DNA of 52,977 nucleotides from Bacillota bacterium (GTDB lineage Bacteria; Bacillota; Clostridia; Christensenellales; WQRI01), in assembly GCA_009786825.1 (NCBI GenBank), contig WQRI01000003.1, forward strand, positions 1-52,977. Direction: 5' to 3'. The notes beneath the pieces are model-generated. The model saw only the letters and a program-made list of their open reading frames with translations, made no database searches and was not told the DNA's origin. Shown in pieces: positions 1,802 to 49,080 of this stretch; the first letter of the stretch is position 1; each line of letters begins with the position of its first letter. The position numbers were made by a program, and so were the translations under genes.

Positions 1802-2620
1802 ATGGGAAAAGTTATAAAAGAATTTGTTAAGTTTGAGACGCACCTACACACCAAAGAAACTTTTGCGTGTGCTAAGGTGGCGGCGGAAGAAATTCCGCAA
1901 ATTTACAAAAAACTTGGGTTTGACGGCATTGTTGTTACAAACCATTTTATGCAAAAAGTTTTAGACCAATACGAAGTGTGTTGCGCCGAGCCGAGCCTTA
2001 AACTACATACTGCGTATGAGGGGCGCGAGATTAGCCTTAACACAAACGAATGCTGTTGGCATAAAAAAGTAGACGGCTATTTGCAAGGCTTTAAAAATAT
2101 GCAAAAGGCGGGCAAGAAGGCAGGCGTTAAGATTTTTTTCGGGCTAGAACTTGGGCTTTTAGAGTACGACAAACTAGATGGTAAAGACCCAGCGATAGAA
2201 CTTTTAGTATACGGCGTGGAAGCGAAAGATTTATACGACACAGTAAATTTTCACGCGCTGAGCCACGCGAGGCTTTTTGAGATTGCAAACCAAAAGGGTT
2301 GGCTTATTTATCAAGCCCACCCAGCAAGAAAAGTTTCTAAGTATGCAGACCCAAAACTTTTGCACGGGGCAGAAGTTTGGAATGCAAACCCGCGCCACTA
2401 TAACTTTAACGACGAGGCGCTTGGTTGGGTGAGTAACCTAAACTTAAAAGAGGGGTTTAATTTAAAAAAGTTATCGGGTTCTGATTTTCATAGAGAGTGT
2501 ACGGCGGGCAGGGCTGGCATTATGGTTCCGAAAGGCTTAAAGAATATACAGCAACTAGTAGAGTTTTTACGCCACAACGACCCGGGGCTTATAATGGGCG
2601 ATTTACATAGGATTTATTAG
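1802..2620 (+). CDS. PHP-domain metal-dependent phosphoesterase (paralog 1)
   Basis: FETHLHTKE...GFDGIVVTNHF...LIYQAHPAR...GSDFH motifs. The start was moved from the ORF-track 1754 to ATG 1802 because the promoter lies inside the upstream part of the track ORF. Confidence 0.75.
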   Translation: MGKVIKEFVKFETHLHTKETFACAKVAAEEIPQIYKKLGFDGIVVTNHFMQKVLDQYEVCCAEPSLKLHTAYEGREISLNTNECCWHKKVDGYLQGFKNMQKAGKKAGVKIFFGLELGLLEYDKLDGKDPAIELLVYGVEAKDLYDTVNFHALSHARLFEIANQKGWLIYQAHPARKVSKYADPKLLHGAEVWNANPRHYNFNDEALGWVSNLNLKEGFNLKKLSGSDFHRECTAGRAGIMVPKGLKNIQQLVEFLRHNDPGLIMGDLHRIY

Positions 2621-2810
2621 TGTTAAATTTTAAATGTTGAATGTTGGGTGTTCAATTTTAAATTTTAAATGTTGAATGTTAAATGTCTAAACTCATTAAA
2701 TGCAAATACGTTTGAACAGTCAGCGATAGCAATAGTTTAGAATTTGCAAATGTTAGTCCGCGCGTAAGCGCGTATAAACATTTAACATTTAAAATTTAGC
2801 ATTTAACATT
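2621..2810 (-). repeat. F1 element copy B (reverse orientation, long left arm)
   Basis: Starts 1 nt after TAG 2618-2620. TAAACTCATT, TTTGAACAG, ATTTGCAAAT, CCGCGCGTAAGCGCGTATAAAC, flanked by AAATGTT/AACATTT heptad arms. Confidence 0.8.
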
Positions 2811-2819
2811 CGGGGAATT

Positions 2820-3542
2820 ATGGAAAATTATTATAAATTAGAGATGCATTTGCATACGGCGGGGGCGTCTAATTGTGGGCGCGTTGCGGCGTCGATTATT
2901 CCTAAACTATATAAAGATGTTGGCTTTGGGGGCATTGTTGTGACCAACCATTTTTCTAAGCATCATCTAAAATTTATTGGTGCAAAAAGTTGGGAAGACG
3001 GCGTAAACAGATACGTAAAAGGTTACGAGGCGGCGAAAAGGGCGGGCGAGAGTATTGGGCTTCGGGTTTTTTTTGGTTTAGAATTACACTTAAAAGAGTA
3101 TTTGCCGCACGGCGCAGTTACAGACCTTTTGGTGTATGGCATTACAAAGCAAGATTTGCTAGAGCATAGATTTATATTTAATTATACGCACAAACAACTT
3201 TTCGAGTTGGCAGAAAAAAAGGGGTGGCTGATTTATCAAGCCCACCCAGCGCGCGCTATGGATATTTTTTCTAATAGTTTTGCACCGCCACACCTTATAC
3301 ACGGGGTAGAAGTTTATAATGCTTCTGGCTTTTGGTATGAGTCTGATGCTAACAATAATCACAAAGCATTAGAGTTTGCTAACAAGCATAAACTAAAGCA
3401 AATTGCAGGCTCTGATTTTCACAACGTTGGTTGTGAGGGGAGCGCGGGTATTTACGTGCCAAACAGCGTAGATAGCATAGAGAGTTTGGTTGCGTATTTA
3501 AAAGCCGAGCAGCCTAGGCTTATCACGAATGTAAAAGATTAA
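2820..3542 (+). CDS. PHP-domain metal-dependent phosphoesterase (paralog 2)
   Basis: LEMHLHTAG...GFGGIVVTNHF...WLIYQAHPARA...GSDFH. Collinear with the 1802-2620 product. Confidence 0.8.
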   Translation: MENYYKLEMHLHTAGASNCGRVAASIIPKLYKDVGFGGIVVTNHFSKHHLKFIGAKSWEDGVNRYVKGYEAAKRAGESIGLRVFFGLELHLKEYLPHGAVTDLLVYGITKQDLLEHRFIFNYTHKQLFELAEKKGWLIYQAHPARAMDIFSNSFAPPHLIHGVEVYNASGFWYESDANNNHKALEFANKHKLKQIAGSDFHNVGCEGSAGIYVPNSVDSIESLVAYLKAEQPRLITNVKD

Positions 3543-5426: not shown

Positions 5427-5585
5427 AATTTTAAATTTTAAATTTTTAATGTTAAATGTTTTCACCGCTAGCGCGGGCAAGATTACGTTTTGCAAATTGC
5501 GAGAATGTGTAACTTGTGGCTGTTAAAAAGTTTTGTCTATTACGAGTTTAATAATTTAACATTTAAAATTTAAAATTTAACATTA
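5427..5585 (+). repeat. F1 element copy C (forward)
   Basis: Arm AATTTTAAATTTTAAATTTTTAATGTTAAATG, TTTTCACCGCTAGCGCGGGCAAG, TTTGCAAAT, GCTGTTAAAAAG, CGAGTTTAA, right arm AATTTAACATTTAAAATTTAAAATTTAACATT. Confidence 0.9.
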
Positions 5586-6528: not shown

Positions 6529-6529
6529 T

Positions 6530-6679
6530 AAATGTTAAATTTTAAATGTTAAATGTTTTCACCGCTATCGCGTACAAAATCTATTTGCAAATTGCTTGCA
6601 AGCAAAAATTGCGACTGTTCAAAAGTTGTGGATTTTATGAATTCAGACATTTAACATTTAAAATTTACAATTTAACATT
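6530..6679 (+). repeat. F1 element copy D (forward)
   Basis: AAATGTTAAATTTTAAATGTTAAATG, TTTTCACCGCTATCGCGTACAAAAT, ATTTGCAAAT, ACTGTTCAAAAG, ATGAATTCAGA, CATTTAACATTTAAAATTTACAATTTAACATT. Confidence 0.9.
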
Positions 6680-8154: not shown

Positions 8155-8398
8155 ATTGTTTAAAGCCCATATACGCGTGCATTTAAACTGCTACGTGTCT
8201 AGGCTTCAAAACAACTTTGGTAATAATAAAGTAAATATAAAAAAATGCAAATCGCATTAGAAAAAATAAAATCTAGGTAACCTATGGTTTAGTCTATGTT
8301 ACCAATTGCGAGGAGGGAATGCAAGGCTTGTTGTTTGTAAAGTTTTGCGATGTGTGTTTGGGCTTTTATATTATAAAGGTCGGGACACTAAAAAAGAT

Positions 8399-9121: not shown

Positions 9122-9248
9122 AATTTAAGCCCTATGTGCTACGCAATACGGCGTCAAACATCAAATTTGTTCGGATTGCGTACATCAAGTACGCGCACCT
9201 CACAAATTTTCGTTTTTCTTGTCTTGCTTGCACCTAGAACTTAAATTT
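9122..9248 (+). repeat. F2 element copy 1 (short form)
   Basis: Outer IR AATTTAAG/CTTAAATT, CTATGTGCTACGCAATACGGCGTCAA, stem AAATTTGT/ACAAATTT around hairpin GCGTAC-ATCAA-GTACGC, CTTGTCTTGCTTGCACCTAG. Confidence 0.85.
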
Positions 9249-9321
9249 CTTGTGACAAACTTCTGACTTTCAGAAAAATACGCGAGTTGTGTCTACAGCA
9301 ATAGAGAACAAAATATTAAAA

Positions 9322-9361
9322 GTGAAACAATTCATAATTCTGAATTCTGAATTCAGAATTA
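9322..9361 (-). repeat. F1 fragment E (core end plus one arm)
   Basis: GTGAAAC followed by AATTCATAATTCTGAATTCTGAATTCAGAATTA, directly upstream of the rplD SD. Confidence 0.6.
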
Positions 9362-10416: not shown

Positions 10417-10575
10417 AATGAATAATTAATAATTAATAGTGAATAATGGTTTCACCTGCTTCGCAGAAAAGATTGCTATTTGCAAAATATACGCAATTTG
10501 TAATCGTAGGCTGTTCAAAAGTTGTATCAATTATGAGTTCAGCAATTATTCATTATTCAATATTCATTATTCATT
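10417..10575 (+). repeat. F1 element copy F (forward)
   Basis: Arm AATGAATAATTAATAATTAATAGTGAATAATG, GTTTCACCTGCTTCGCAGAAAAG, ATTTGCAAAAT, GCTGTTCAAAAG, ATGAGTTCAG, arm CAATTATTCATTATTCAATATTCATTATTCATT. Confidence 0.9.
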
Positions 10576-11438: not shown

Positions 11439-11594
11439 AAATTACAAATTACAAATTACAAATTACAAATGTTATACTCAGAATATGCAAAACGTTTTGT
11501 CAGTTATAATTGCACTTGTGCGCATAGTTCATATGAATTTTGCCCGCGCTAAGCGGTGAAACATTTGTACACTGTACATTGTACATTGTAATTT
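11439..11594 (-). repeat. F1 element copy G (reverse)
   Basis: Arm GAAATTACAAATTACAAATTACAAATTACAAATG ... TTTTGCCCGCGCTAAGCGGTGAAAC, arm ATTTGTACACTGTACATTGTACATTGTAATTT. Confidence 0.85.
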
Positions 11595-11605: not shown

Positions 11606-11896
11606 ATGGGTAGGTCATTAAAGAAAGGACCTTTCGTCTGCGAGAGGTTATTAAAAAGAGTAGAAGATATGAACGCAAAAGGCGAGAAAAAGCCAGTTAG
11701 AACTTGGTCGCGCTCGTCTACTATCTTCCCAGAGTTTGTAGGGCATACGATTGCTGTACACAACGGAAAAAAGCATATACCAGTATATTGCACGGAAGAT
11801 ATGGTAGGGCATAAACTTGGCGAATTTTCTCCAACAAGAACTTACTATGGGCATATAGTGGATAAGAAGAAGAAGGGTTCGGGCAAGAAGAAATAA
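11606..11896 (+). CDS. rpsS: 30S ribosomal protein S19 (uS19)
   Basis: [10 protein letters not shown]...[47 protein letters not shown] at 11597-11600. The track ORF's N-terminus is translation of F1 copy G. Confidence 0.97.
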
Positions 11897-12049
11897 TGTT
11901 AAATGCTAAATGCTAAATGTTAAATTGTTATACCGCTAGCGCGGGCAAGTTTCACCTTGCAAACTATCAAAAGGCAGAAATTGCAAACTGTTCAAATGCA
12001 GATGCTGTTAATGTGTTTAACCATTTAACATTAAAAATTTAACATTAAA
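11896..12049 (+). repeat. F1 element copy H (forward)
   Basis: AATGTTAAATGCTAAATGCTAAATGTTAAATTG, TTATACCGCTAGCGCGGGCAAG, CTTGCAAAC, ACTGTTCAAATG, CCATTTAACATTAAAAATTTAACATT. The arm begins with the last A of the rpsS TAA. Confidence 0.85.
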
Positions 12050-12108
12050 AATTATAACTTAAATTACAAAACTTAAACCGAATATTTTAAGTTTTAAGGG
12101 ATAACAAA

Positions 12109-12496: not shown

Positions 12497-12655
12497 AAAT
12501 GTTAAATGCTAAATTTTAAATGTTTAATTGTTACACCGCTTAGCGCGGGGCAAAATCAATTTGCAAATTTTATACAAATCAAAGTGCTAACTGTTCAAAA
12601 TTAAAGTATTTAAAGGGTTTAAACATTTAACATTCAACATTTAAAATTAAACATT
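12497..12655 (+). repeat. F1 element copy I (forward)
   Basis: AAATGTTAAATGCTAAATTTTAAATGTTTAATTG, TTACACCGCTTAGCGCGGGGCAAAAT, ATTTGCAAAT, ACTGTTCAAAAT, AACATTTAACATTCAACATTTAAAATTAAACATT. Confidence 0.9.
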
Positions 12656-14390: not shown

Positions 14391-15817
14391 TGAGTGAAAA
14401 AAATATCCCTGCCACCAAGGCAGAAAAGTTAAAACAAACTATAGCAGACAACAAAGAAAAGGTTAAAGAAGCAAAGGTTGCACTATCTACTCTTCAAAAA
14501 GATGAAAAGGCAGCGTCTGCTTTAGTACTTAAATACGAAAAAAGTCTAGATACTTCTAACAAGTCTTTACAAAAGGCTGTTGGGCTTAAAGAGAGTTTAG
14601 CTTTAGCGGTAGAAAAAGCAAATGCTGGCAAGGCTGATGCGGCTGCAAACCTAAAGCAAAAGCAAGCAGATGCTAAGGCTAAAAAGGGTGACGGCAAAGC
14701 GGCGGAAGCAGTAGCAAAAGCGGAAGAGAGGCTTCAAAAAGCGAACACGTCCCTAGAGGCTGCTAAAATTAAAAACTCAGCAAACGAAATTATCATAAAA
14801 GAAAAGACTAAAGAAGTAGCGGGCATACAAAAAGATATAGAAAAAACGCAAAAAAGCGTTGCGGGTATAACTTCTAAACTACCTACGGCGCAAAAAAAGA
14901 TAGACGACCTAGAAGCAAAACTTACAAAAGCACTAGCAGACTTAGAAGCAGAAAAGGCTAAGGGCGCAGAGACTAAAGGCAAGGTTGCACCAGCGCCAAA
15001 GGCTACAGAGGCTAAGGCGGCTGCACCAAAAAAAGTTGCGGACAAGCCGGCGGCTAAGGCAGGGGCGAAAGCTGAAAAGCCGAAAGCTAGTCCAAGGGCA
15101 ACTGAAAAGGTTGCGACTAAGGTCAGTGAAAAAACAGCACCAAAGGCTACTACGGCAGAACCTGCAAAGGCTGTAAAGGCTACTACGCCAGCACCAACAC
15201 CAATAATTACTAAAAAGGCGGTAACTGTTAAGGAAGTAGATGGCGCAATTGTTGCTACTAAAAAAGTGGTAACAGTTAAGCAAGCGGGTGATAGCATAGC
15301 GGTTGTAACATCTAAGCAGGCAGTAACAGTAAAGCAAGCAGACGGAACATCAGTTACGCACAAGCCAAAAATTGTAGGCGAGTCTGATGTATCTGTATCA
15401 GAGTTTACAAGACCAGAAAAAAGGCAACAACTACAAACTGCTAAAAAGCAAAAACCACGTAAGGCGGTTGCATACTCTAGACCAGTTAAAACAATTAAAG
15501 AGGTTAAGCGCCAAAGAGAAGATGCGGCTAAAAAATCTGCAGAACTACTAGTAGAGCGTGCAGAGCGCAGACCACTTAGAAAAACAAGAACAGGAATTGT
15601 CGTATCTAACAAAATGGACAAAACAATTGTTGTTGCTGTTGTGTCTAAAGTTAAGCACCCAATCTACAAAAAAACAGTTAACCAAACAAAGAGATATAAA
15701 GCGCACGACGAAAACAACACAGCGGGCATAGGCGACACAGTATTAATTGCAGAGACTAGAAAACTTTCTAAAAACAAGTATTTTAGACTAGTAGATATTG
15801 TTGCACGCGCCAAATAA
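14390..15817 (+). CDS. rpsQ: 30S ribosomal protein S17 (uS17) fused to an approximately 391-aa N-terminal Lys/Ala-rich extension
   Basis: The C-terminal 84 aa (from about 15563), [69 protein letters not shown], are canonical S17. SD AGGAGGAG, and ATG 14390 overlaps the rpmC TAA. No start codon or SD lies near the core. Confidence 0.9.
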
Positions 15818-15972
15818 TGTTAAATTGTAAATGTTAAATGTTTAATTGTTTCACTCGCTAACGCTACAATATTTTTTGCACATTATACGTAATACAAAAT
15901 TTAGACTGTTAAAAAGCAAAAGCCTTAAAAGCGTGCAAACACTTTACACTTTACATTCTACATTTTACACTA
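15817..15972 (+). repeat. F1 element copy K (forward, diverged core)
   Basis: AATGTTAAATTGTAAATGTTAAATGTTTAATTG, TTTCACTCGCTAACGCTACAAT, TTTTGCACAT, ACTGTTAAAAAG, arm CACTTTACACTTTACATTCTACATTTTACAC. Confidence 0.8.
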
Positions 15973-16029
15973 TAAAAAAGAGTTGTGATTTGTAAAACAA
16001 GTTATAAATAGACAAGGAGACCAAACAAA

Positions 16030-16404
16030 ATGGTACAAATGCAAACGAGGCTAGTAGTTGCAGATAACTCTGGTGCAAAAGAGATTATGTGCATTAGGGT
16101 ACTAGGCGGCTCATTTAGAAAAAGCGGTAATATTGGCGATATAATTGTAGCAAGTGTTAAGTCGGCAAACCCGGGCGGAAACGTTAAAAAGGGTGATGTT
16201 GTAAAGGCACTTATTGTTAGAACGCACAAGGGCATAACGCGCCCAGATGGCTCTACAATTAAATTCGATGATAATGCGGCAGTAATAATAGATAATAACA
16301 AGCAACCACGCGGAAGCCGTGTTTTCGGACCAGTTGCAAGAGAAATAAGAGATAAAGATGCGGCTTTTGCAAAAATAGCATCTTTAGCACCAGAAGTTTT
16401 ATAA
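16030..16404 (+). CDS. rplN: 50S ribosomal protein L14 (uL14)
   Basis: [23 protein letters not shown]...[36 protein letters not shown]. Confidence 0.98.
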
Positions 16405-16608
16405 ATGTTAAATTGTAAATGTTAAATGTTTAATGGTTTCACCGCTAGCGCGGGCAATATTATATTTGCAAATTGTATTAATTATGAAAATGCAGGCTGT
16501 TAAAAAGTTTGGTATATAATGAGTTCAGCCATTTAACATTTAAAATTAAACATTTAACATTTACAATTTAACATTAAAATAAGCATTTAACATTAAAAAT
16601 TTAACATT
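16404..16608 (+). repeat. F1 element copy L (forward, extra partial right arm)
   Basis: AATGTTAAATTGTAAATGTTAAATGTTTAATG, GTTTCACCGCTAGCGCGGGCAAT, ATTTGCAAAT, GCTGTTAAAAAG, ATGAGTTCAGC, CATTTAACATTTAAAATTAAACATTTAACATTTACAATTTAACATT, plus a second arm piece at 16584-16608. Confidence 0.9.
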
Positions 16609-16623
16609 AATATAAGGGTGAAT

Positions 16624-17104: not shown

Positions 17105-17149
17105 CTAGCGGTGAAACCATTAAACATTTTACATTAAAAATTTAACATT
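17105..17149 (-). repeat. F1 fragment M (core end plus arm)
   Basis: CTAGCGGTGAAAC then CATTAAACATTTTACATTAAAAATTTAACATT. The following AATATAAGGGT(G/T)AAT...ATG duplicates the sequence upstream of rplX. Confidence 0.65.
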
Positions 17150-17167
17150 AATATAAGGGTTAATAAA

Positions 17168-20796: not shown

Positions 20797-20835
20797 GTAA
20801 AACAATTCAGAATTCATAATTCAGAATTCGTAATT
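20797..20835 (-). repeat. F1 fragment N (core end plus arm)
   Basis: GTAAAAC then AATTCAGAATTCATAATTCAGAATTCGTAATT, just upstream of rpsN. Same arm type as fragment E. Confidence 0.55.
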
Positions 20836-21030: not shown

Positions 21031-21215
21031 TATCAAGCACTATAAACGGCGCAATACTTCGTTAAGGTTTACGGTTTTCTTGTTTGCGTACGCCAAGTAC
21101 GCGGCACGGCGAAAATCCGCACCTTTCCGACCGAGCCGTAAACCGTAAGGTTTTAGCCTTTTGCGTAGCAAAAGCGTCAAAAGGCGAGGTGTCTTGCTTG
21201 TTTCTAGCACTTGAT
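21031..21215 (+). repeat. F2 element copy 2 (long form, with the 65-nt module)
   Basis: Starts at the base after TAG. Outer IR TATCAAGCAC.../...GCACTTGATA, hairpin GCGTAC-GCCAA-GTACGC, module CGACCGAGCCGTAAACCGTAAGGTTTTAGCCTTTTGCGTAGCAAAAGCGTCAAAAGGCGAGGTGT at 21128-21192. Confidence 0.88.
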
Positions 21216-21337
21216 ACGACATTCTACTCAATTTGGTTAGTTTAGAAATATTGAATTGTAGAGACATATTCACAAACCAAAATCTAGGGGGTAAGTAGGT
21301 TTTAAGCCTATACTGCTTCCAAGGAGGTATAAATAAA

Positions 21338-21730: not shown

Positions 21731-21766
21731 AAGTTCTATGTACTTCGTTATGCTTCGTTGAGATTT
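21731..21766 (+). repeat. F2 left-end fragment
   Basis: AAGTTCTATGTACTTCGTTATGCTTCGTTGAGATTT matches the F2 left end (compare 48961-48990). Begins right after the rpsH TAA. Confidence 0.5.
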
Positions 21767-21922: not shown

Positions 21923-22465
21923 ATGTCAAGAGTTGGAAGAAGCCCGATAGTTATTCCGGCGGGGGTAGAGGTTGATATCAGCGGTACAACCATTACAATC
22001 AAGGGAAAGTTGGGCGAACTTAAAAGAGAAATAAACCCAAGCATCAAGGTGGCTGTTGAGGGTGGCGAAATTATTTTAACAAGGTCGTCTGATGTTAAAC
22101 AGCATAAGTCGCTTCACGGACTATACAGAGCGCTTATTGCAAATATGGTTAAAGGTGTTAGCGAGGGTTGGGAAAAGACGCTTATACTAAATGGTGTTGG
22201 TTACAGAGCGGCAATTGCGGGTAACAAAATAACGCTAAACATAGGCTATTCACACCCAATAGAAGTAACAGCGCCAGACAACTTAAAGGTAGAACTTATC
22301 TCTAACACAGAGATTAAAGTAAGCGGTATATCTAACGAAGAAGTAGGGCAGTTTGCAGCAAACGTAAGGGCATTCAGAAAGCCAGAGCCATATCACGCGT
22401 ACGGAATCAGATATAAAGACGAAGTTATTATACGTAAGGAAGGCAAAACCTCAGGCAAGAAATAA
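21923..22465 (+). CDS. rplF: 50S ribosomal protein L6 (uL6)
   Basis: MSRVGRSPI.IP.GV.V......I..KG.LGEL...GVGYRA......L.L..GYSHP......PEPY.G.GIRY..E. Confidence 0.97.
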   Translation: MSRVGRSPIVIPAGVEVDISGTTITIKGKLGELKREINPSIKVAVEGGEIILTRSSDVKQHKSLHGLYRALIANMVKGVSEGWEKTLILNGVGYRAAIAGNKITLNIGYSHPIEVTAPDNLKVELISNTEIKVSGISNEEVGQFAANVRAFRKPEPYHAYGIRYKDEVIIRKEGKTSGKK

Positions 22466-22653
22466 TTAAAATCCGTATATACTTCGCAATACGGCGTCAA
22501 GGCTTACGGTTTGCGCGGTTACGTACCGAGTGGTACGCGCCCTTGCAAATCCGCGCCTTTTCGACCGAGCCGTAAACCGTAAGGTTTTAGCCTTTTGCGG
22601 TAGCAAAAGCGTCAAAAGGCGAGGTGTCTTGCTTGTATCTACGAATTTTAATT
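22465..22653 (+). repeat. F2 element copy 3 (long form)
   Basis: Outer IR AATTAAAAT/ATTTTAATT. The first A is the last base of the rplF TAA. GCGCGG/CCGCGC stem, hairpin CGTACC-GAG-TGGTACG, 65-nt module at 22562-22627. Confidence 0.88.
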
Positions 22654-22737
22654 CCTTTGAAAGTTAGGCAAGCGAATAAAGAATATTATTTTGCGGGTGG
22701 GGTGAATTGTAACCCCTGCCCAAATGCAACAAAGACA

Positions 22738-22770
22738 CAATTTAAAATTTAACATTTAAAATTTAACATT
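22738..22770. repeat. Solo F1-type arm bracketed by a short IR
   Basis: CAATTTAAAATTTAACATTTAAAATTTAACATT, flanked by AGACACA (22733-22739) and TGTGTCT (22775-22781). Confidence 0.5.
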
Positions 22771-22798
22771 GACGTGTGTCTATAAATAAGGAGAAAGA

Positions 22799-25162: not shown

Positions 25163-25326
25163 AATGTTAAATGTTTAATTTTAAATGTTAAATGGTTAAA
25201 CTCATTATTGCAAATAGTTTCAAACAGCCTGCATTTAATCTTTTATTATAATTTGCAAAATGAGATTTTGCCCGCGCTAAGCGGTGAAACCATTAAACAT
25301 TAAAAATTTAACATTAAAAATTTAAC
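25163..25326 (-). repeat. F1 element copy O (reverse)
   Basis: AATGTTAAATGTTTAATTTTAAATGTTAAATG, GTTAAACTCATT, TTTCAAACAGCC, ATTTGCAAAAT, TTTTGCCCGCGCTAAGCGGTGAAAC, CATTAAACATTAAAAATTTAACATTAAAAATTTAAC. Confidence 0.9.
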
Positions 25327-27304: not shown

Positions 27305-27307
27305 TAA

Positions 27308-27457
27308 AATGTTAAGTGTTAAATTTTTAATGTTAAATGGTTTCACCGCTTAGCGCGGGCAAAATGATTTTGCAAAATGGGTAAAATTTTCTAGCATACA
27401 CTTAAACAGTTTTGTGGTTTAACAATTTAAAATTTAACATTCAACATTTAGCATTAA
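27308..27457 (+). repeat. F1 element copy P (forward)
   Basis: AATGTTAAGTGTTAAATTTTTAATGTTAAATG, GTTTCACCGCTTAGCGCGGGCAAAAT, TTTTGCAAAAT, ... right arm AACAATTTAAAATTTAACATTCAACATTTAGCATT. Confidence 0.85.
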
Positions 27458-29004: not shown

Positions 29005-29053
29005 AGAATTCAGAATTTTAGGATTTAGGATTCCGAATTGTTTCACCGCTAGC
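29005..29053 (+). repeat. F1 fragment Q (left arm plus start of core)
   Basis: AGAATTCAGAATTTTAGGATTTAGGATTCCGAATTG then TTTCACCGCTAGC. The rest of the element is absent. Confidence 0.6.
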
Positions 29054-29081
29054 ATTAGTTTTTTTGCAAGGGGTACATTAA

Positions 29082-29548: not shown

Positions 29549-29770
29549 ATGGCAAAAAGTGATATGATAGAAGCAGAAGGTATTGTACTAGAGACATTAA
29601 GAGACGCAAGGTTTAAAGTGCAACTAACTAATGGCCATATTATCACGGCGGTAATAAGTGGTAGGCTAAGGCAAAACTGGATAAAAATATTAGAGGGCGA
29701 CAAAGTAAAAGTTGAGATGTCACCCTATGATTTAACAAAAGGGCGCATAACGTGGCGTGACAAAAAATAA
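29549..29770 (+). CDS. infA: Translation initiation factor IF-1
   Basis: [70 protein letters not shown]. Confidence 0.97.
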
Positions 29771-29900
29771 TATTTGAAGTGCTATATACGGCGTTATACT
29801 TCGGCGAGTGTTGCGGTTTTCTGCGGTTGCGTACAAGTAGTACGCGCCCTTCGCAAAGCCGCAGACTTCCATGCCTAACTCGCATCTAGTCTCAAATATC
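29771..29900 (+). repeat. F2 element copy 4 (short form)
   Basis: Starts at the base after TAA. Outer IR TATTTGAAG/(T)CTCAAATA, CTATATACGGCGTTATACTTCGGCG, stem CTGCGG/CCGCAG, hairpin GCGTAC-AAGTA-GTACGC. Confidence 0.85.
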
Positions 29901-30000
29901 TAGTGTTAGCCTGTGTTTGAGTATTTTTAAGTAGTTTTCGCTTGTAATCAGATTTCGATTTACTAACGCAAAAAGTCAGTTTTAAAAGGAGTATATAAAA

Positions 30001-30665: not shown

Positions 30666-30794
30666 TTTTTAATGGTTATAAACTTCGCAATACTTCGTCA
30701 AACTTCGAATTTGCTCAGTTTGCGTACGCCAAGTACGCGGCACTTCGCAAATTCTCGTTTTCCTTGTCTTGCTCGCTTCTAACCATTAAAAATA
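30666..30794 (+). repeat. F2 element copy 5 (short form)
   Basis: Outer IR TTTTTAATGGTTA/TAACCATTAAAAA, ACTTCG x3, stem GAATTTGC/GCAAATTC, hairpin GCGTAC-GCCAA-GTACGC. Confidence 0.85.
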
Positions 30795-30947
30795 CGCAGC
30801 ATATCTCAGAACTTCAAACGGGCTTGCGAGATGCTCGCTTCTAACCATTAAAAATGCGCAAAACGGGCTTGCGTGCGTAACCATTAAAAATATTCCCGCG
30901 ATAGCGGGTGAAGCCATTTAACATTTAGCATTTAAAATTTAACATTA
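30795..30947. repeat. Repeat debris: two extra F2 right ends plus reverse F1 fragment R
   Basis: GCTCGCTTCTAACCATTAAAAAT recurs at 30833-30855, GCGTGCGTAACCATTAAAAAT at 30871-30891, and CCCGCGATAGCGGGTGAAGCCATTTAACATTTAGCATTTAAAATTTAACATT at 30895-30947. Confidence 0.65.
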
Positions 30948-31020
30948 AGTATACGAGAAAAGTAATTTTTTCGGAGGGTTTTGTGGTAGGCTTGTTAAAA
31001 GTCGGTCACTTGAAAGAAAT

Positions 31021-31422: not shown

Positions 31423-31684
31423 AAAAGGCGGCTTTGCCGCTTCCCTCGCTTGAGGCTCGGCTTTTTTGGCGAGGCAGTTGTACTAGGTTCTCAAAAACGA
31501 TATTTCCTAGTGCATAAAAAAAACCACACGTTTTACGTTGTGTCTTAGAATTAGTAGTCTACGTGTAAGTGTGCGATTAATCAGACTATACTAATCAGAC
31601 TATACATTTTTACGATGTGTTAGAAGTTGCCTTTAATCAGCAACATTGTACTTAAAAACAAACAAAAAACATAGAGGTCAAAAT

Positions 31685-32327: not shown

Positions 32328-32476
32328 TATTCAATGAACATTGAACACTTAACATTGAATAATTTTTTTGTCTTAGCGGACGGCAAAGTTCGTACAACCA
32401 AAAAACACTAACAATTAAAAAGGCTTCGAAGAAGCCATAAAGCAATTGTTCAGTGTTCAATGTTCAGTGTTAATTG
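32328..32476. repeat. F1-like element copy S (GAACATT-type arms, divergent core)
   Basis: Left arm TATTCAATGAACATTGAACACTTAACATTGAATAATT, right arm CAATTGTTCAGTGTTCAATGTTCAGTGTTAATTG. The interior lacks the GTTTCACC core but has the hairpin GGCTTC-GAA-GAAGCC. Confidence 0.65.
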
Positions 32477-32513
32477 TAATTTGTAATTTAAATTAATCGG
32501 AGAAAAATAAATT

Positions 32514-33470: not shown

Positions 33471-33658
33471 ATTTGAAGTCGTATATACTGCGCAATACTT
33501 CGTCGAGCGTTACGGTTTTCTGCGGTCACGTACATTTAGTACGCTCCCTTGAAAATCCGCCGCTCTTCGACCGAGCCGTAAACCGTAAGGTTTTAGCCTT
33601 TTGCGTAGCGAAAGCGTCAAAAGGCGAGGTGTCTTGCTTGTATCTACAACTTCAAATC
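33470..33658 (+). repeat. F2 element copy 6 (long form), followed by a duplicated right end at 33675-33693
   Basis: Outer IR AATTTGAAGT/ACTTCAAAT. The first A is the last base of the rpoA TAA. Hairpin CGTAC-ATTTA-GTACG, 65-nt module at 33568-33632. ATCTACAACTTCAAATCAT is repeated 14 nt downstream. Confidence 0.88.
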
Positions 33659-33745
33659 ATAAAGGAAACTAATTATCTACAACTTCAAATCATTAGGGGA
33701 ACTATTTTTCAAGTTTTAAACGCTTGACACTTTGGAGATAAAATA

Positions 33746-39564: not shown

Positions 39565-39726
39565 AATTAAATTACAAATTACAATTTACAAATTACAAAT
39601 GCGAAACTCATAAAACGCAAAGCGTTAGAGCAGTTACACAACTAGTGCGCACAATTTGAACTTGCAATATTCTCGCGAAGCGAGTTAAATCATTTGTACA
39701 TTGTACATTGTACACTACTGTAATTT
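39565..39726 (-). repeat. F1 element copy T (reverse)
   Basis: Arm AAATTAAATTACAAATTACAATTTACAAATTACAAATG, GCGAAACTCATAA, ... TCTCGCGAAGCGAGTTAAATC (hairpin CTCGC-GAA-GCGAG), arm ATTTGTACATTGTACATTGTACACTACTGTAATTT. Confidence 0.85.
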
Positions 39727-40173: not shown

Positions 40174-40203
40174 AGCAGAATGCAAAGATAGAGCAGAATG
40201 CAA

Positions 40204-40239
40204 TTTAACATTTACAATTAAAAATTTAACATTCAACAT
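40204..40239. repeat. Solo F1-type arm (fragment U)
   Basis: TTTAACATTTACAATTAAAAATTTAACATTCAACAT, upstream of the ntpI SD. Confidence 0.5.
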
Positions 40240-40255
40240 AGAAAGGTGAGCAAAT

Positions 40256-42268: not shown

Positions 42269-42271
42269 TTC

Positions 42272-42430
42272 AATGTTAAATTTTAAATGTTTAATGTTTA
42301 ATGGTTTCACCTGCTTCGCGGGCAAGTTTCATTTTGCAAATTTAAAGCAAATGAAAACTGCGACGCTCAAATGTACGGCATATAATGAGTTTAACCATTT
42401 AACATTTAAAATTAAACATTTAACATTTTA
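42272..42430 (+). repeat. F1 element copy V (forward)
   Basis: AATGTTAAATTTTAAATGTTTAATGTTTAATG, GTTTCACCTGCTTCGCGGGCAAG, TTTTGCAAAT, ATAATGAGTTTAAC, CATTTAACATTTAAAATTAAACATTTAACATTTTAAAT. Confidence 0.88.
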
Positions 42431-43051: not shown

Positions 43052-43129
43052 AAAAAACAAATATTTTTGGTGTTAGTGCAAAAAATAAATATTTTGGTGT
43101 TAGTGCAAAAATAGGTATTTTTGGTAGAC
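43052..43129 (+). repeat. Tandem direct repeat of about 27 bp, 2.8 units
   Basis: AAAAAACAAATATTTTTGGTGTTAGTGC / AAAAAATAAATATTTTGGTGTTAGTGC / AAAAATAGGTATTTTTGGTAGAC. Confidence 0.8.
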
Positions 43130-43226
43130 TAAGTTTTAAGGGCTAGGGGCAGTTTAACGGTAACACTTAAATTATAGAGAGCAAAAAGTTAATGCAAATT
43201 TTTAGAGTTTGCACGAGAGTAACAAA

Positions 43227-43808: not shown

Positions 43809-43820
43809 ATGCATTAATTA

Positions 43821-43979
43821 GATTGAACATTGAACACTGAACATTGAATAATTGTTAAATACGATAAACACAAAAGCGTTTTAACAGTTGTAACTTGGTT
43901 TTGCTGGAATTTTTGAAATGTAATATTTCTTGCGAAGCAAGGTGAAACAATTGTTCATTGTTAATTGTTCAGTGTTCAG
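43821..43979 (-). repeat. F1 element copy W (reverse)
   Basis: Arm GATTGAACATTGAACACTGAACATTGAATAATTG ... TTTCTTGCGAAGCAAGGTGAAAC (hairpin CTTGC-GAA-GCAAG), arm AATTGTTCATTGTTAATTGTTCAGTGTTCAG. Confidence 0.85.
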
Positions 43980-44004
43980 TTAAAAAAACGGAGTTTTTTT
44001 AGAT

Positions 44005-44991: not shown

Positions 44992-44993
44992 TT

Positions 44994-45147
44994 AATGTTA
45001 AATTTTAAATTTTTAATGGTAAATGTTTTCACCTGCTTCGCAGAAATATTTATTTGCAAGTTGTTCGCAAGTGAAAATTCTGACTGTCAAAAGAAAAAAA
45101 CACAAAGGATAAAACAATTAAAAATTTAACATTTAAAATTTAACATT
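44994..45147 (+). repeat. F1 element copy X (forward)
   Basis: AATGTTAAATTTTAAATTTTTAATGGTAAATG, TTTTCACCTGCTTCGCAGAAAT, ATTTGCAAGT, GACTGTCAAAAG, arm CAATTAAAAATTTAACATTTAAAATTTAACATT. Confidence 0.88.
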
Positions 45148-45161
45148 GCGGAGCGTTATAA

Positions 45162-45488
45162 ATGGCAAAAGGTAAAATAGCAGTAATTGGGGATAAAGAG
45201 AGTATAATTGCTTTTAAGGCAGTTGGTATGGAGACGTTCCCCGTAGAAAAAGATAAAGACGAGATAAGAAAAACTTTGCGCCGCTTAGCAAACGAAGAGT
45301 ACAGCGTTATATTTATAACAGAAGAAGCGTGCGAGGGGCAAGACGAAATTCTAGAGCGCTTTATGGCACAACCTTTCCCATCAATCATACCAATACCAAG
45401 CTCTAACGGCACAATGGGTTTAGGTATGACCAACTTGAAGCGAAATATAGAGAAGGCTATAGGGGCGGACATTCTATTAGGCGAATAA
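45162..45488 (+). CDS. ntpG: V-type ATPase subunit F (NtpG)
   Basis: KIAVIGDKESIIAFKAVGMETFPV......E......L.....Y.VIFITEE is typical of V-type F subunits, 108 aa. Confidence 0.85.
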   Translation: MAKGKIAVIGDKESIIAFKAVGMETFPVEKDKDEIRKTLRRLANEEYSVIFITEEACEGQDEILERFMAQPFPSIIPIPSSNGTMGLGMTNLKRNIEKAIGADILLGE

Positions 45489-45613
45489 TTTAAGCGCTAT
45501 ATGCGGCGTAATACTTCGTTGAATGTTACGGTTTTCTGCGGTCACGTACAATTAGTACGCTCCCTTGAAAATCCGCCATTCGCCTTGTCTTACTTGCATC
45601 TAGCACTTAAATT
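45488..45613 (+). repeat. F2 element copy 7 (short form)
   Basis: Outer IR AATTTAAGC/GCACTTAAATT. The first A is the last base of the ntpG TAA. CTATATGCGGCGTAATACTTCGTT, TTACGGTTTTCTGCGG, hairpin CGTAC-AATTA-GTACG, CTTGTCTTACTTGCATCTAG. Confidence 0.88.
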
Positions 45614-45749
45614 TAGCGTTTAGCATTGCACTTTTAAAGATATAAAAAGGTTTTATATATAAACTACACACAAAATAATTTTTTTAGGGGGTGTGGGGGA
45701 ATTTTTTTCCCAAAAAACTGTCCCCCGCAAAACAAATAAAGAGGAAAAT

Positions 45750-47513
45750 ATGGCTGGTAAAATTGTAAAAGTATCGGGACCATTAGTTGTAGCGTCGGGA
45801 ATGGCAGATGCTAGAATGTACGACGTTGTACAAGTTTCTAAAGAGAGGCTGATTGGCGAGATTATAGAGCTTAGGGGCGATATGGCGTCTATTCAAGTTT
45901 ATGAAGAGACATCGGGAATCGGTCCGGGTGAGCCTGTAGTTTCTACGGGCGCGCCGCTAGAGTTAGAGCTTGGTCCGGGGCTTGTTGAAGGAATTTTCGA
46001 CGGAATACAGCGTCCGCTAACAGAAATTATAAAGTTAAGCGGCGAGCGTATTGCGCGTGGCTTAGAAGTTCATAACCTAGACAGAAATAAAAAATGGGAG
46101 TTTAAAGCAACCGCTAAAGTTAAAGACAAAGTGGCGGCGGGCGATGTTATTGGCGTTGTTCAAGAAACCCCGCTTGTAGAGCATAGGATAATGGTGCCGT
46201 TTGGGGTTGATGGCGAGATTACAGAAATCAAGTCGGGCAACTTCACAATAGTAGATGTTGTTGCAAAAATCAAAACTAAAGACGGCGTACGCGATGTTAT
46301 TATGATGCAAAAGTGGCCTGTTAGGCGTGGCAGACCTTATGCTTCTAAACTTAGCCCAGATATCCCACTTATGACAGGACAACGCAGCATAGATATGTTT
46401 TTCCCAATTGCTAAGGGGGGTGTATCTGCTGTTCCGGGTCCGTTCGGGTCGGGCAAAACAGTTGTTCAGCACCAACTAGCAAAGTGGGCAGATGCCGAGA
46501 TTGTTGTATACGTAGGCTGTGGCGAGCGCGGTAACGAGATGACAGACGTTTTAGTAGAATTCCCAGAACTTGCAGACCCAAAGTCTGGCAGACCACTAAT
46601 GGAGCGCACAGTTTTAGTTGCTAACACATCAGATATGCCCGTTGCGGCGCGCGAGGCTAGCATATACACGGGTATTACAATAGCAGAATATTTTAGAGAT
46701 ATGGGCTACTCTGTTGCTATAATGGCAGACAGTACATCGCGCTGGGCAGAAGCACTTAGAGAAATCTCGGGCAGACTAGAAGAGATGCCGGGTGAAGAGG
46801 GCTACCCTGCTTACTTAGGCTCGCGAATTGCAGAGTACTACGAAAGGGCTGGTCGCGTAAACTGTTTAGGCACACAAGGGCGCGTTGGTGCAATATCGGC
46901 AATCGGTGCAGTATCGCCACCGGGTGGCGACTTAGCAGAGCCAGTATCTCAAGGCACGCTGAGAATAGTAAAAGCATATTGGGGGCTGTCATCATCACTT
47001 TCTTACAAGCGTCACTTCCCAGCAATAGACTGGCTATTATCATACTCGCTTTATGTAGAAACACTAGGCAAGTGGTACGACGAAAACGTTGCGCCTGATT
47101 GGTCGGCTAACAGAAAAGCGGCAATGGCATTACTTCAAGAAGAAGCGAAGTTAGATGAGATTGTAAGGCTTGTAGGTATGGATGCATTATCGCCAAGAGA
47201 TAGATGGAAAATGGAAAGCGCAAAATCGCTAAGGGAAGACTTCTTACAACAAGATGCATACGACAAAGTAGACACTTACGCATCGCCACAAAAAATGATA
47301 ACGCTGCTTCGCATAATAATGAATATGTATAAGTTGGGTAACGACGCTTTAGACGCAAACGTAGAAATTAGAGACCTACTTAAAATAAAAGCGTTCGAGC
47401 AACTAGGTCGGGCAAAGTTTAACCCAGAAAAAGACTTACACATTATAGAAAAAATCGGCACAGATATGGTTGATGAAATTGGCGAATTAATTGCAAAAGG
47501 AGGGCAAGACTAA
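45750..47513 (+). CDS. ntpA: V-type ATPase catalytic subunit A
   Basis: [15 protein letters not shown]....A.MYD.V.V....L.GEII.L.GD.A.IQVYEET.G..PGEPV. P-loop [17 protein letters not shown] at 45739-45744. Confidence 0.96.
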
Positions 47514-48949
47514 TGTTTGTAGAATATAAAACGATTAATGAAAGTGTCGGACCTCTTATGCTTGTAGAGGGTGTTAGGGGCGTTAAGTATAACGAACTTG
47601 TAGAAGTTATTCAAATTGATGGGCGCGTTAGAATGGGCAGAGTTTTAGAAATGAACGAAGATAAGGCGCTTGTTCAGTTGTTCGAGTCTTCTCAAGGGCT
47701 TCAGATTAATACTTCACGCGCTAGGTTTATCGGTAAGTCTCTAACTTTCGATGCTAGCCCAGACATTTTAGGGCGCGTATTCGACGGGCTAGGCAGAACA
47801 AAAGATAGCGGACCACCAGTAGTAGCGCACCAGCGTTTAGACATAAACGGGCTACCAATAAACCCAGCAGCAAGAACATTCCCATCAGACTTTATTCAAA
47901 CAGGCGTATCGGCAATAGATGGCTTAAACACGCTTGTTAGGGGACAAAAACTTCCGGTTTTCTCGGCTTCGGGCTTGCCGCACGCGCAACTTGCTGCACA
48001 AATCGCAAGGCAAGCAAGGGTTTTGAAAGCAGATGAGAGTTTTGCGGTTGTTTTCGCGGCGGTTGGTATAACGTACGAAGAAGCAGATTATTTCGTACAA
48101 AGTTTTAAAGAAACGGGCGCAATAGACAGAACAGTTATGTTTATGAACCTAGCGGACGACCCGGCGGTAGAGCGTATCGCTACACCGCGTATGGCGCTTA
48201 CGGCTGCTGAGTATTTGGCGTTTGAACTTGATATGCACGTACTTGTTATAATAACAGACATCACAAACTATGCGGACGCGCTTCGCGAAGTTTCTGCCGC
48301 TAGAAAAGAAGTTCCGGGCAGGCGTGGTTATCCGGGCTATCTATATACAGACCTAGCATCTATGTATGAGAGAGCAGGTTGTATCAAGGGCAAAAAAGGC
48401 TCTATCACGCAAATACCAATTCTAACAATGCCAGAAGATGATAAGACTCACCCAATTCCAGACTTAACGGGCTATATCACAGAAGGGCAGATAATGCTAG
48501 ACCGCTCACTTAACAAAAAGGGTATATTCCCACCAATAGATGTACTGCCGTCACTCTCACGCTTAAAAGATAAAGGTATGGGCGAGGGCAAAACAAGAGA
48601 AGACCACTCTAGCGTACTAAACCAACTTTTTGCGTGCTATGCGCGTGGTAAAGATGCTAAAGAACTAGCGTCTATACTAGGTGAAGCGGCACTAACAGAT
48701 ATAGACAAAATCTACGCAAAGTTTGCAGAAGAGTTTGAAAAAGTATTTGTAGGGCAAGGCTGGCAAACAAACAGAAATATAGTAGACACGCTAGATATAG
48801 GTTGGAAACTTATGGGTATGCTTCCAAAGTCAGAACTTAAGCGCGCCAAAGCAAACCACATAGAAAAATACTATGTGCCAACTCAAATAGGCGAGGGCGG
48901 CTTAGCAAAAAAGATACCGGGGCAGATTGACAAAAAAGAACAACACTAA
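47513..48949 (+). CDS. ntpB: V-type ATPase subunit B
   Basis: EYKTI..V.GPL..VE.V.GV.Y.ELVE......R.G.VLE...D.A.VQ.FE...G...RGYPGY.YTDLA..YERAG. The ATG overlaps the ntpA TAA by 1 nt. Confidence 0.96.
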
Positions 48950-48952
48950 TAA

Positions 48953-49080
48953 AAATTAATGTCTATATGCGGCATAATACTGCGTTGAGATTTACGTTTT
49001 GTTTCGGTCACGTACAATAAGTACGCTCCCTCACAAATCCGCATCTCGCCTTGTCTTATTTGCATCTAGCCATTAATTTA
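48953..49080 (+). repeat. F2 element copy 8 (short form)
   Basis: Outer IR AAATTAATG(T)/(G)CCATTAATTT, CTATATGCGGCATAATACTGCGTTGAGATTTACG, hairpin CGTAC-AATAA-GTACG, CTTGTCTTATTTGCATCTAG. Confidence 0.85.

Follow-up and report, generated by a model that had tools for sequence, protein, structure and literature searches.

Two unrelated non-coding repeats, here called F1 and F2, lie directly behind the stop codons of ribosomal protein, V-type ATPase and other genes in a 52,977-nucleotide contig from a Bacillota bacterium (the window, which denotes this whole stretch of DNA). F1 is a foldback repeat of about 155 nucleotides (nt) in which a conserved core is enclosed by two complementary arms of heptamers. 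F2 is one long imperfect hairpin of 135 nt, or of about 200 nt where a 70-nt insert is present in the 3' internal loop. [quoted passage not shown] Ancestral operon spacers would have held nothing beyond a ribosome-binding site (RBS), and about 150 nt could have been inserted harmlessly only into the 0–5 nt between the stop codon and the Shine-Dalgarno (SD) sequence. F1 would thus be wedged between stop and RBS, its arm arrays lengthening by whole heptamers until coding sequence is met. The anatomy and copy numbers of both families, the statistics of their placement, the short spacers in relatives and the unbiased orientation of F1 are direct observations. We infer that the elements are or were mobile, and that selection against damage to the RBS or the stop codon is the filter.

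The window is a metagenome contig (ENA ERZ27257340, k141_2207079), and the only public run that contains it is a DNA run labelled termite gut metagenome; no RNA run contains the sequence. An independent Logan contig is 100% identical to the window over 2028 nt, across one F1 and the start of one F2, and the repeats are therefore not assembly artefacts. A search with the F1 hairpin motif gave no match among GTDB species representatives and 27 loci in metagenomes of the Joint Genome Institute (JGI). Once three duplicates were removed, the loci comprised about 205 kb without overlaps, equal to the window in GC content. The placement sample consists of the window and these loci (L002–L028), and 29 of its co-directional full F1 copies come from JGI contigs. 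Genes were called with a codon-usage score that recovers the known genes of the window; start calls in the loci may be imprecise. The ends of F1 arms were set by arm complementarity and then extended by heptamer periodicity, which leaves boundaries uncertain by a few nucleotides, the heptamer beginning with AA or TAA.

From position 1754 on, all confirmed genes of the window are on the plus strand. They comprise two PHP-domain genes, an ABC-2 transporter, cysK, the S10-spc-alpha ribosomal operons, a few metabolic genes and a V-type ATPase operon, in this order. The open reading frames (ORFs) upstream of the elements are genuine genes according to Pfam (PHP, ABC-2, PALP/CysK, S19, L22, S17, L14, L30, V-ATPase C and F, S14, L6 and V-ATPase B, with SecY, IF-1, S13, RpoA and V-ATPase I confirmed in addition), and their domains extend to the C-termini.

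The original prediction held that the elements begin within a few nucleotides of the upstream stop codon. All 18 stop codons that it listed (11 for F1 and seven for F2) are where they were placed, and the repeats begin 0–5 nt later. The list itself was incomplete, since there are 16 full F1 copies in the window rather than 11, and nine full F2 copies. The five additional F1 copies have other arm heptamers and are found 8–37 nt past the stop codon (rplW/rplB, 37 nt; rplB/rpsS, 8 nt; rpsD/rpoA, 23 nt; rpiB/ntpH, 19 nt; ntpE/ntpC, 15 nt). One additional F2 begins 10 nt past the rplC stop codon in the rplC/rplD spacer, and another (49116–49254) is reversed and lies by a start codon. The pattern is present in both orientations of the F1 core, neither of which is preferred (26 versus 21 copies), is mirrored for minus-strand genes, and recurs in the JGI contigs.

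Among 45 co-directional full copies of F1, the gap to the stop codon has a median of 2 nt and is at most 4 nt in 27 copies and at most 10 nt in 31. The gap to the start codon has a median of 12 nt and is never usefully below 5. If copies were placed uniformly in their spacers, 13.6 would be expected within 4 nt of the stop (P = 5e-6), and a small-sample effect, which had been named as the outcome that would overturn the pattern, is thus not the explanation. With 8 nt before the start codon reserved for the RBS the expectation becomes 22.0 (P = 0.03), and with 12 nt reserved it becomes 25.0 (P = 0.22). The last figure indicates that F1 fills all of the space from stop to RBS. A contrast had been drawn between the tight stop side and a variable distance to the next start; for F1 this is misleading, as the start side is equally tight once an RBS of about 12 nt is allowed for. 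The arm usually ends 0–6 nt from an SD motif, and occupied junctions retain a median of 14 nt of non-element sequence. Of 193 co-directional junctions, 45 carry a full F1 and 23 a partial copy only. F1 is also present in five of 12 convergent junctions, and always stands behind at least one gene end.

Related genomes offer a view of the spacers before expansion. One relative (L030; 63% RpoA identity) has the same gene order, ribosomal protein spacers of -4 to 30 nt, and neither F1 nor F2. In its spacers GGAG often follows the stop codon directly, as in taaGGAGACGCGTTatg, and two other relatives resemble it. Because spacers of this ancestral type hold just an RBS, the 0–5 nt behind the stop are the only point of insertion that spares both stop and RBS. 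Purifying selection on the remainder of the spacer, one of three explanations originally proposed, therefore holds up for F1, in view of these relatives' spacers of 0–30 nt, the short residue in occupied junctions and the agreement of 25.0 expected with 27 observed copies; for F2 it does not suffice.

A more distant relative (L034; 62% RpoA identity, from another JGI sample) has a shorter F1-like element (541–658) in its adk/map spacer that the F1 profile missed. Its arm consists of four TGAATAG units starting 0 nt after the adk stop codon (TAG), and it retains the core motifs TTGCAAAG and ACTGTTC. The habit of hugging stop codons therefore predates the F1 family.

Few stretches of bacterial genomes are as compact and conserved as ribosomal protein operons. 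In the window nearly every junction of these operons has been enlarged from about 10–20 nt to 150–350 nt with gene order unchanged, which shows how much insert an operon tolerates when it is placed exactly between stop and RBS and folded back. The window and loci thus form a natural test set for the effects of stop-adjacent structure on termination, coupling and mRNA processing, and for distinguishing filtering from targeting of such elements.

Architecture of the F1 repeat

A profile search of the window and loci (about 250 kb) gave 85 F1 matches, 54 of full length and about 30 partial. Read from its left end, the element has an arm of four or five heptamers in tandem, then GGTTTCACC, a small GC hairpin, GCAA..ATTTGCAAATTG and a variable stretch; after GCAGACTGTTCAAAAG and TTAATGAGTTTAACC comes the right arm, which repeats the left arm in reverse complement. 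Core landmarks align across the 54 copies (GGTTTCACC, the GC hairpin, TTTGCAAATTG, GACTGTTCAAAAG and TTAATGAGTTTAACC), and the stem of the GC hairpin covaries (CCGC/GCGG, CTGC/GCAG, CGCGC/GCGCG). The arms form stems of about 31–35 base pairs, 87% of them Watson-Crick pairs, and F1 accounts for 112 of the 126 period-7 arrays in the data. The full copies represent at least five arm subfamilies, with the following units:

AATGTTA: 29 full copies (type A)
AGTGTAA: 14 full copies
TTACAAA: 4 full copies (type C)
GAACATT: 4 full copies (type E)
AATGAAT: 3 full copies (type D)

A further unit, CAGAATT, occurs in half copies only. Arms are complementary at 28–30 of 38 positions within a subfamily and at 20–22 of 38 across subfamilies, which makes the core the conserved part of F1 and the arms the variable part. 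Covariation of the arms exists only between subfamilies. It is not specific to individual copies, whose own arms pair no better than those of other copies of the same subfamily. A chimeric F1 (L024, 5724–5900) combines a type D left arm (AATGAAT) with a type A right arm (AACATTT), with 20 of 38 arm positions paired, and suggests recombination between subfamilies.

The full copies of F1 in the window are as follows:

2621..2810, minus strand: full F1 with the core reversed and the left arm duplicated, PHP1/PHP2 spacer
5427..5584, plus strand: full F1, type A (AATGTTA), ABC permease/cysK
6529..6679, plus strand: full F1, type A, cysK/hexapeptide transferase; TGA stop, then directly the TAA of the arm
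10417..10575, plus strand: full F1, type D (AATGAAT), rplW/rplB; a 37-nt hairpin separates the stop from the arm
11439..11594, minus strand: full F1, type C (TTACAAA), rplB/rpsS; 8 nt past the stop
11896..12055, plus strand: full F1, type A, rpsS/rplV; stop TAA in register with the first heptamer
12497..12655, plus strand: full F1, type A, rplV/rpsC
15817..15973, plus strand: full F1, degenerate, right arm type-B-like, rpsQ/rplN
16404..16612, plus strand: full F1, type A, right arm array extended, rplN/rplX
25163..25325, minus strand: full F1, core reversed, type A, rpmD/rplO
27307..27455, plus strand: full F1, type A, secY/adk; TGA then TAA; adk without SD
32329..32490, plus strand: F1-like full copy, type E (GAACATT), divergent core, rpsD/rpoA; a 20-nt remnant resembling an F2 end precedes it (32309–32328)
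39569..39726, minus strand: full F1, type C, rpiB/V-ATPase G-like gene (ntpH)
42272..42427, plus strand: full F1, type A, ntpI/ntpK
43822..43978, minus strand: full F1, type E, ntpE/ntpC
44994..45147, plus strand: full F1, type A, ntpC/ntpF

In some copies extra, unpaired heptamers on one side reach as far as the stop codon or the RBS (window 2621 and 16404; L014 13809). These suggest that the arm arrays grow by slippage, in whole heptamers, until coding sequence is met.

The bases shared between arms and stop codons are a consequence of the arm unit beginning with (T)AA. The type A unit reads (T)AAATGT, and at rpsS, rpsQ and rplN the first heptamer is in register with the TAA of the stop. At rplV, and behind the TGA stop codons of cysK and secY, the TAA of the element comes after the stop. 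With one TAA every 7 nt, the arms close all three frames within 21 nt from either side. ORFs cannot run far into such arms, which accounts for the small negative gaps at some stop codons. ORFs that do run into arms are an annotation hazard, and stops and starts may be mis-called in this lineage. The notion that the element supplies the stop codon was rejected, as TAA makes up 75% of F1-adjacent stops versus 69% (P = 0.48) and the C-termini are native.

The profile search also found about eight half copies in the window, listed here with a copy that nhmmer reported in two pieces:

123..367, plus strand: F1 as two nhmmer pieces (left 123–181, right 289–367), convergent junction; 5 nt past the stop of an ORF ending at 117
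9327..9360, plus strand: solo heptamer arm, CAGAATT type, 16 nt ahead of the rplD start, downstream of F2
17105..17156, minus strand: F1 half (GC-hairpin side and arm), 18 nt ahead of the rplE start
20797..20835, plus strand: solo heptamer arm, CAGAATT type, 9 nt ahead of the rpsN start
22737..22779, plus strand: solo type A right arm, ahead of the rplR start, downstream of F2
29006..29055, plus strand: F1 left half (CAGAATT-type arm and TTTCACCGCTAGC), map/orf29082, behind a stop-adjacent hairpin
30886..30954, minus strand: F1 half (GC hairpin and arm), rpsM/rpsK, downstream of F2
40197..40240, plus strand: solo type A right arm, 15–19 nt ahead of the ntpI start
50312..50365, plus strand: F1 left half (type E arm and GC hairpin), long ntpD/surface-protein spacer

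Solo arms proximal to a start codon lie 9–28 nt before rplD, rplE (17118–17149), rpsN, rplR and ntpI, and solo halves proximal to a stop codon are rarer. Decay of F1 seems to spare the start-adjacent arm.

Small stand-alone hairpins are found directly after or across stop codons (window 10380–10416 and 28979–29005; L024 5724–5745; L006 2178–2197; L022 5161–5186), especially in front of type D and type E arms. SD sequences were also compared. Genes behind an F1 arm have no obvious SD in 45% of cases, cysK and adk among them, versus 36–38% elsewhere; this is no clear difference, and the idea that SDs are lost behind F1 was dropped because it is not significant. Across the window and loci as a whole, about 36–45% of called genes have no obvious SD, and many starts are preceded by ..(A/G)TT ATG.

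Structure and polarity of F2

The consensus structure that RNAalifold predicts for 11 F2 copies has 39 pairs, with 95.3% of cells paired compared with 30–43% when the partners are slid. Changes on both sides of the pair are observed for 22 pairs. The covariation score is 0.47, versus at most 0.11 in the slid controls and 0.16 in shuffles, and none of 500 shuffles reaches the observed value. The apical CGTAC..GTACG domain does not vary among copies. In nearly every copy the basal stems P1 and P3 have a sequence of their own, with full compensation, even where the apical 50 nt are almost identical (rpoA, ntpF and L011). P1 is formed by the paired ends of the element, and G-U pairs are few. The predicted structured element is well supported by this covariation; gene conversion, or template-switch correction of a DNA palindrome, would look alike.

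A covariance model scores the sense strand of F2 at 100–149 bits and the antisense strand at 20–45 bits. Searches with this model returned the same 11 copies and two relatives, termed F2b (L013, about 680–830; L008, about 5884–6050), whose outer stem is TAGAGTTGC..GCAACTCTA. In L013 the upstream gene has the TAG within this stem as its stop codon, and in L008 the stem's TAG lies directly behind the gene's own TAG. Nine full F2 copies are located in the 53-kb window and two in the 205 kb of loci. The representatives in the window, including truncated ones, are:

8156..8215, plus strand: mini-F2 (F2-like ends, interior deleted), 1–2 nt past the rpsJ stop
9123..9250, plus strand: short F2, rplC/rplD; the P1 stem begins 10 nt past the stop
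21031..21226, plus strand: long F2 with the 70-nt insert in the 3' internal loop, rpsN/rpsH; 0 nt past TAG
21731..21766, plus strand: F2 5' fragment, 0 nt past the rpsH stop
22464..22664, plus strand: long F2, rplF/rplR; the stem overlaps the stop by up to 2 nt
29770..29908, plus strand: short F2, infA/rpmJ
30666..30803, plus strand: short F2, rpsM/rpsK; the outer stem TTTTTAATGGTTA resembles an F1 arm
33471..33667, plus strand: long F2, rpoA/rplQ; 3' end duplicated 13 nt downstream
45487..45622, plus strand: short F2, ntpF/ntpA
48953..49089, plus strand: short F2, ntpB/ntpD
49116..49254, minus strand: reversed F2, adjoining the ntpD start

The 3' end of F2 is tandemly repeated in two of these spacers, three times in rpsM/rpsK (30780–30890) and twice in rpoA/rplQ (33645–33705). 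Forward and reversed copies together fill the ntpB/ntpD spacer (48953–49254), and the two are predicted to form a single giant hairpin by mutual pairing.

F2 has a strict polarity. Co-orientation with the upstream gene is found for 10 of 11 F2 and both F2b copies (12 of 13). In the ten forward F2 copies the first paired base is -1 to 10 nt from the stop codon, with a median of 1.5 nt (-3 to +10 when F2b is included), and three truncated F2 remnants in the window likewise begin 0–5 nt past a stop. On the start side, the same ten copies are followed by 69–221 nt of other sequence, in which F1 halves, duplicated 3' ends of F2 and further repeats are found. If placement were uniform and the RBS reserved, the F2 pattern would have a joint probability of about 9e-11 (sign test, 0.002; orientation test, 0.012). 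GC skew follows gene direction in every locus, and for this reason the orientation of F2 cannot be assigned to transcription rather than to replication. A function at the 3' end of the upstream cistron, also among the original explanations, stays alive for F2 and F2b only, on the strength of the strand bias and of the one-sided placement. With its strict relation to the upstream cistron, F2 merits experimental study.

Competing explanations for the contact with stop codons

Several observations weigh against accumulation for want of room as a complete account. None of the 10 divergent junctions (2.4 kb) contains F1, against an occupancy of 35% for junctions overall. The unoccupied co-directional spacers are long (median 95 nt), so that room exists elsewhere, and a dense occupancy of sites of 0–5 nt is hard to reach by random insertion and filtering alone. 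No pair of empty and filled alleles that would attest to mobility was found; element-free orthologous spacers are seen only in distant relatives, and exact-protein look-ups for other strains (RpoA and InfA) returned only the same organism. F1 is also unlike a typical MITE in having a conserved core and variable arms. Finally, the geometry is insufficient to explain the orientation and one-sided placement of F2 and F2b. Later insertions without bias should sometimes have parted F2 from the stop codon, and geometry alone therefore fails for F2. The extra cause for F2 and F2b could be strand-specific insertion beside the stop, or else the folded RNA could act where the upstream cistron has its 3' end. 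Strand-specific insertion, translational coupling, and mRNA processing or protection are each compatible with the data, as non-exclusive additions to the want-of-room explanation.

Targeted insertion, which had also been put forward originally, is possible, if unlikely. In this case the spreading machinery would recognize TAA or TAG and an A/T-rich stretch, or a small hairpin, near the stop codon. For F2, insertion would be strand-specific relative to replication, as for single-strand transposons of the IS200/IS605 or REP/RAYT type (RAYT, REP-associated tyrosine transposase). F2, F2b and a third, terminator-like repeat (F3, described below) begin with or directly after TAA or TAG, and F3 stands behind ATAA even where no gene ends. 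The 6–7 nt proximal to the stop recur at the start of the F2 stem in L011 and rplC/rplD, the 10:1 orientation of F2 follows GC skew as well as transcription, and F2 is on the stop side of F1 remnants in four to five spacers. The absence of F1 from divergent junctions is likewise in keeping with targeting. However, no target-site duplication, conserved flank or conserved dinucleotide is apparent at F1 or F2 copies, with the reservation that boundaries fuzzy by a few nucleotides do not strictly exclude a 2-nt duplication. F1-adjacent stops are not enriched in TAA, neither orientation of F1 is preferred, and the approximately 250 kb yielded no multi-copy ORF, transposase or autonomous partner; no RAYT-like repeated ORF turned up there either, in the course of analyses that included no dedicated RAYT search. 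Machinery acting on DNA would be unable to sense a stop codon as such, and four unrelated families would each need the same preference. A beginning at the stop codon is shared by F1, F2 with F2b, F3 and the L034 element with its TGAATAG units, which favors a common filter over targeting specific to each family.

A role in mRNA processing or stability likewise seems unlikely but possible as the explanation. RNase III or RNase Y would cleave the long A-U stems of F1 and the structured F2, or these would block 3' exonucleases, and thereby split the polycistronic ribosomal protein and V-ATPase transcripts into units of unequal stability, as with Correia, ERIC, REP and cip-cel sequences. The long, largely Watson-Crick stems of F1, the 39 pairs of F2 with their 22 compensated positions and high covariation score, the better match of the sense strand to the F2 model, and the enrichment of F2 in highly expressed operons, as seen in its density in the window compared with the loci, are all consistent with such a role, for which there are precedents (PMC10969869, PMC2229807, PMC10311766). 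On the other hand, neither processing nor protection requires contact between stem and stop codon, F1 would be workable in either orientation only if the hairpin alone matters, and the compensated changes of F2 could also result from gene conversion or template-switch correction in a DNA palindrome. The scarcity of G-U pairs in F2 also argues against it.

It is rather unlikely that contact with the stop is itself functional. F1 and F2 would then be portable operon-spacer modules with a basal stem within reach of the terminating ribosome, the start-side heptamers of F1 acting as an SD-independent landing pad and F2 as a strand-specific structured RNA at the 3' ends of cistrons, with a role in processing, stability or release. 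If this is true, F1 would be a bacterial analogue of ribosome shunting that lets 150-nt repeats live inside ribosomal protein operons.

More doubtful still is a shunt-like hairpin for translational coupling. The terminating ribosome would melt the stop-side arm and free the start-side heptamers for reinitiation by the ribosome or the 30S subunit across about 150 nt. The heptamer array would stand 0–15 nt before the next start, the ends of the stem would be spatially adjacent, and only stems no more than about 12 nt from a stop would survive in operons. Many spacers are indeed predicted to form one hairpin, from 0–5 nt after the stop to 5–15 nt before the start, and most F1 stop gaps (31 of 45) do not exceed 10 nt. 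Many genes behind an F1 arm have no obvious SD, solo right arms by starts are kept more often than solo left halves by stops, and TAACTGA arrays before SD-less starts have been proposed as binding sites of translational regulators (PMC4679880). However, genes away from F1 have SD-less starts nearly as often, the two ends of an isolated spacer tend to pair in any minimum free energy fold, and F2 leaves a considerable distance before the next start. Moreover, on the transcribed strand the F1 arms have 36 G.U and 25 A.C mismatches, which is no significant excess of the former (P = 0.2).

A terminator-plus-promoter cassette that makes every gene its own transcription unit is very improbable. The F1 core does contain the small GC hairpin and TATAAT-like strings such as GGTATATAATGAG, but no U-tract follows the hairpin, the two F1 orientations are equally frequent, and neither terminator-like sites (14 versus 14.0 expected) nor promoter-like sites (32 versus 28.8 expected) are in excess, with no strong site in F1 or F2. 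A small-sample coincidence or an artefact of boundary definition is scarcely credible: arm boundaries are indeed fuzzy, but the pattern is replicated in the 29 co-directional copies from independent JGI contigs and departs strongly from chance for both F1 and F2.

Relation to known repeats and other features of the window

F1 and F2 belong in kind with intergenic repeats of the MITE and REP type, outside any named family. Their size and copy number are those of MITEs, which are non-coding, dispersed in many copies and smaller than 300–600 base pairs (54 full and about 30 partial copies of F1 in 250 kb; 11 copies of F2, 135–200 nt in length), and terminal inverted repeats (TIRs) are present as the F1 arms (31–35 nt) and as the paired ends of F2. 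The target-site duplication that also defines MITEs was found at none of the F1 and F2 copies. Rfam has no match at gathering score anywhere in the window. At E <= 1, a search of 41900–45800, which holds three F1 and one F2, returned only a chance match to IS009 (E = 0.64).

The Correia or NEMIS repeat, a MITE of Neisseria, is similar in being about 100–160 base pairs long, in residing in transcribed intergenic DNA, in having TIRs that fold in mRNA and, in its long form, in closing all frames. RNase III cuts at these repeats (PMC2229807, PMC10969869). In contrast to F1, Correia has conserved 26-base-pair TIRs, a TA target duplication and a site for integration host factor (see also PMC2229807); F1 has a conserved core, subfamily-specific arms of tandem heptamers and no duplication that we could see. 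ERIC/IRU of Yersinia and the Chunjie MITE of Geobacter (127–235 base pairs, with inverted ends) reside inside operons or at the 3' ends of genes and leave the operon unbroken, and ERIC alters mRNA decay (PMC10969869); the Chunjie element is placed within an operon in work cited there. Both differ from F1 in their target duplications, conserved TIRs, lack of heptamer periodicity and far lower density.

REPs and the related BIMEs and REPINs are likewise extragenic palindromes close behind an upstream stop. Enterobacterial REPs cluster 1–20 nt after the stop codon of the upstream ORF (PMC12306157), and a REP within 15 nt of the stop is described as stalling ribosomes and lowering expression in E. 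coli (Liang et al. 2015, as cited in PMC12306157). REPs are about 35–40 nt long, GC-rich, tied to RAYTs, and favor operon ends and convergent genes, whereas F1 and F2 are 135–200 nt long, mostly A/T-rich, and situated between stop and RBS inside operons. Assignment to REP/REPIN was rejected, as the units here have a long non-palindromic core and are not palindromes of about 20–40 nt.

The arms of F1, with 4–6 tandem heptamers and a right arm ending 0–15 nt before a start codon or SD, also resemble the TAACTGA direct repeats of Beggiatoaceae, cyanobacteria and Bacteroidetes. These hug start codons, often without an SD, occur upstream of ribosomal protein genes, change in steps of 7-nt insertions or deletions, and extend into upstream stop codons, an overlap put down to the closure of all three frames by the unit (PMC4679880). 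Both are tandem 7-nt intergenic units by start codons. However, TAACTGA repeats form single direct arrays, whereas F1 has two inverted arrays around a conserved 90-nt core. F1 was rejected as a TAACTGA array proper, as all of its units differ from TAACTGA and nearly all heptamer arrays in the data are parts of F1.

In the cip-cel operon of Ruminiclostridium, intergenic stem-loops set transcript stoichiometry through selective RNA processing and stabilization (PMC10311766). Those stem-loops are locus-specific rather than dispersed repeats, and are not reported to be linked to stop codons. By analogy, processing of the cip-cel type is a possible role for F2.

The attC sites of integrons are imperfect palindromes, which start at the preceding ORF's stop codon or inside it and have the core consensus GTTRRRY. 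The F1 unit GTTAAAT fits this core. However, attC has R and L boxes, and F1 has four or five tandem units instead. This candidate was rejected, since the genes are no cassettes but the universally ordered S10-spc-alpha and V-ATPase operons, as in relatives, and the window contains no integrase.

Palindromes near stop codons, in the form of E. coli REPs, and heptamer arrays that overlap stop codons, in the form of TAACTGA repeats, are thus already documented. New features are the architecture of F1, with its conserved core and subfamily-specific tandem-heptamer arms, the structure and strict polarity of F2, and the near-saturation of ribosomal protein operon junctions.

Two other repeats are present in the window. 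F3 is represented by the following copy:

31423..31526, plus strand: F3, terminator-like interspersed repeat; begins +1 after the rpsK TAA

This copy has the GC-rich stem followed by a U-tract that characterizes an intrinsic terminator. Further copies (L014 1301–1404, L017 772–868, L008 7488–7638) are terminator-like in both directions. F3 is always preceded by ATAA, even where no gene ends, and terminates in ..CATAAAAAA, which may be a terminal direct repeat. The fourth repeat, F4, is located in the rplO/secY spacer (25839–25926) and is 93% identical to L009 5389–5475.

The RpoA of the window is at most 66% identical to any other database protein, the best named matches being metagenome-assembled genomes of Clostridia and Christensenellales. 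No tRNA or tmRNA was found in the window. Several ribosomal proteins carry very long, repetitive N-terminal extensions rich in Lys, Ala and Glu, namely S17 (475 aa, 14390–15817), L5 (1193 aa, 17168–20749), S5 (427 aa, 23228–24511) and L30 (215 aa, 24513–25160), and their Pfam domains are confined to the C-terminal end. L5 of the relative L030 is also long (424 aa). A large ORF with internal repeats, which likely encodes a surface protein, begins at 50481 and continues past the end of the window at 52977. It is 64% identical to an ORF at L026 6488–8866, and the window and the JGI loci share no other gene content.

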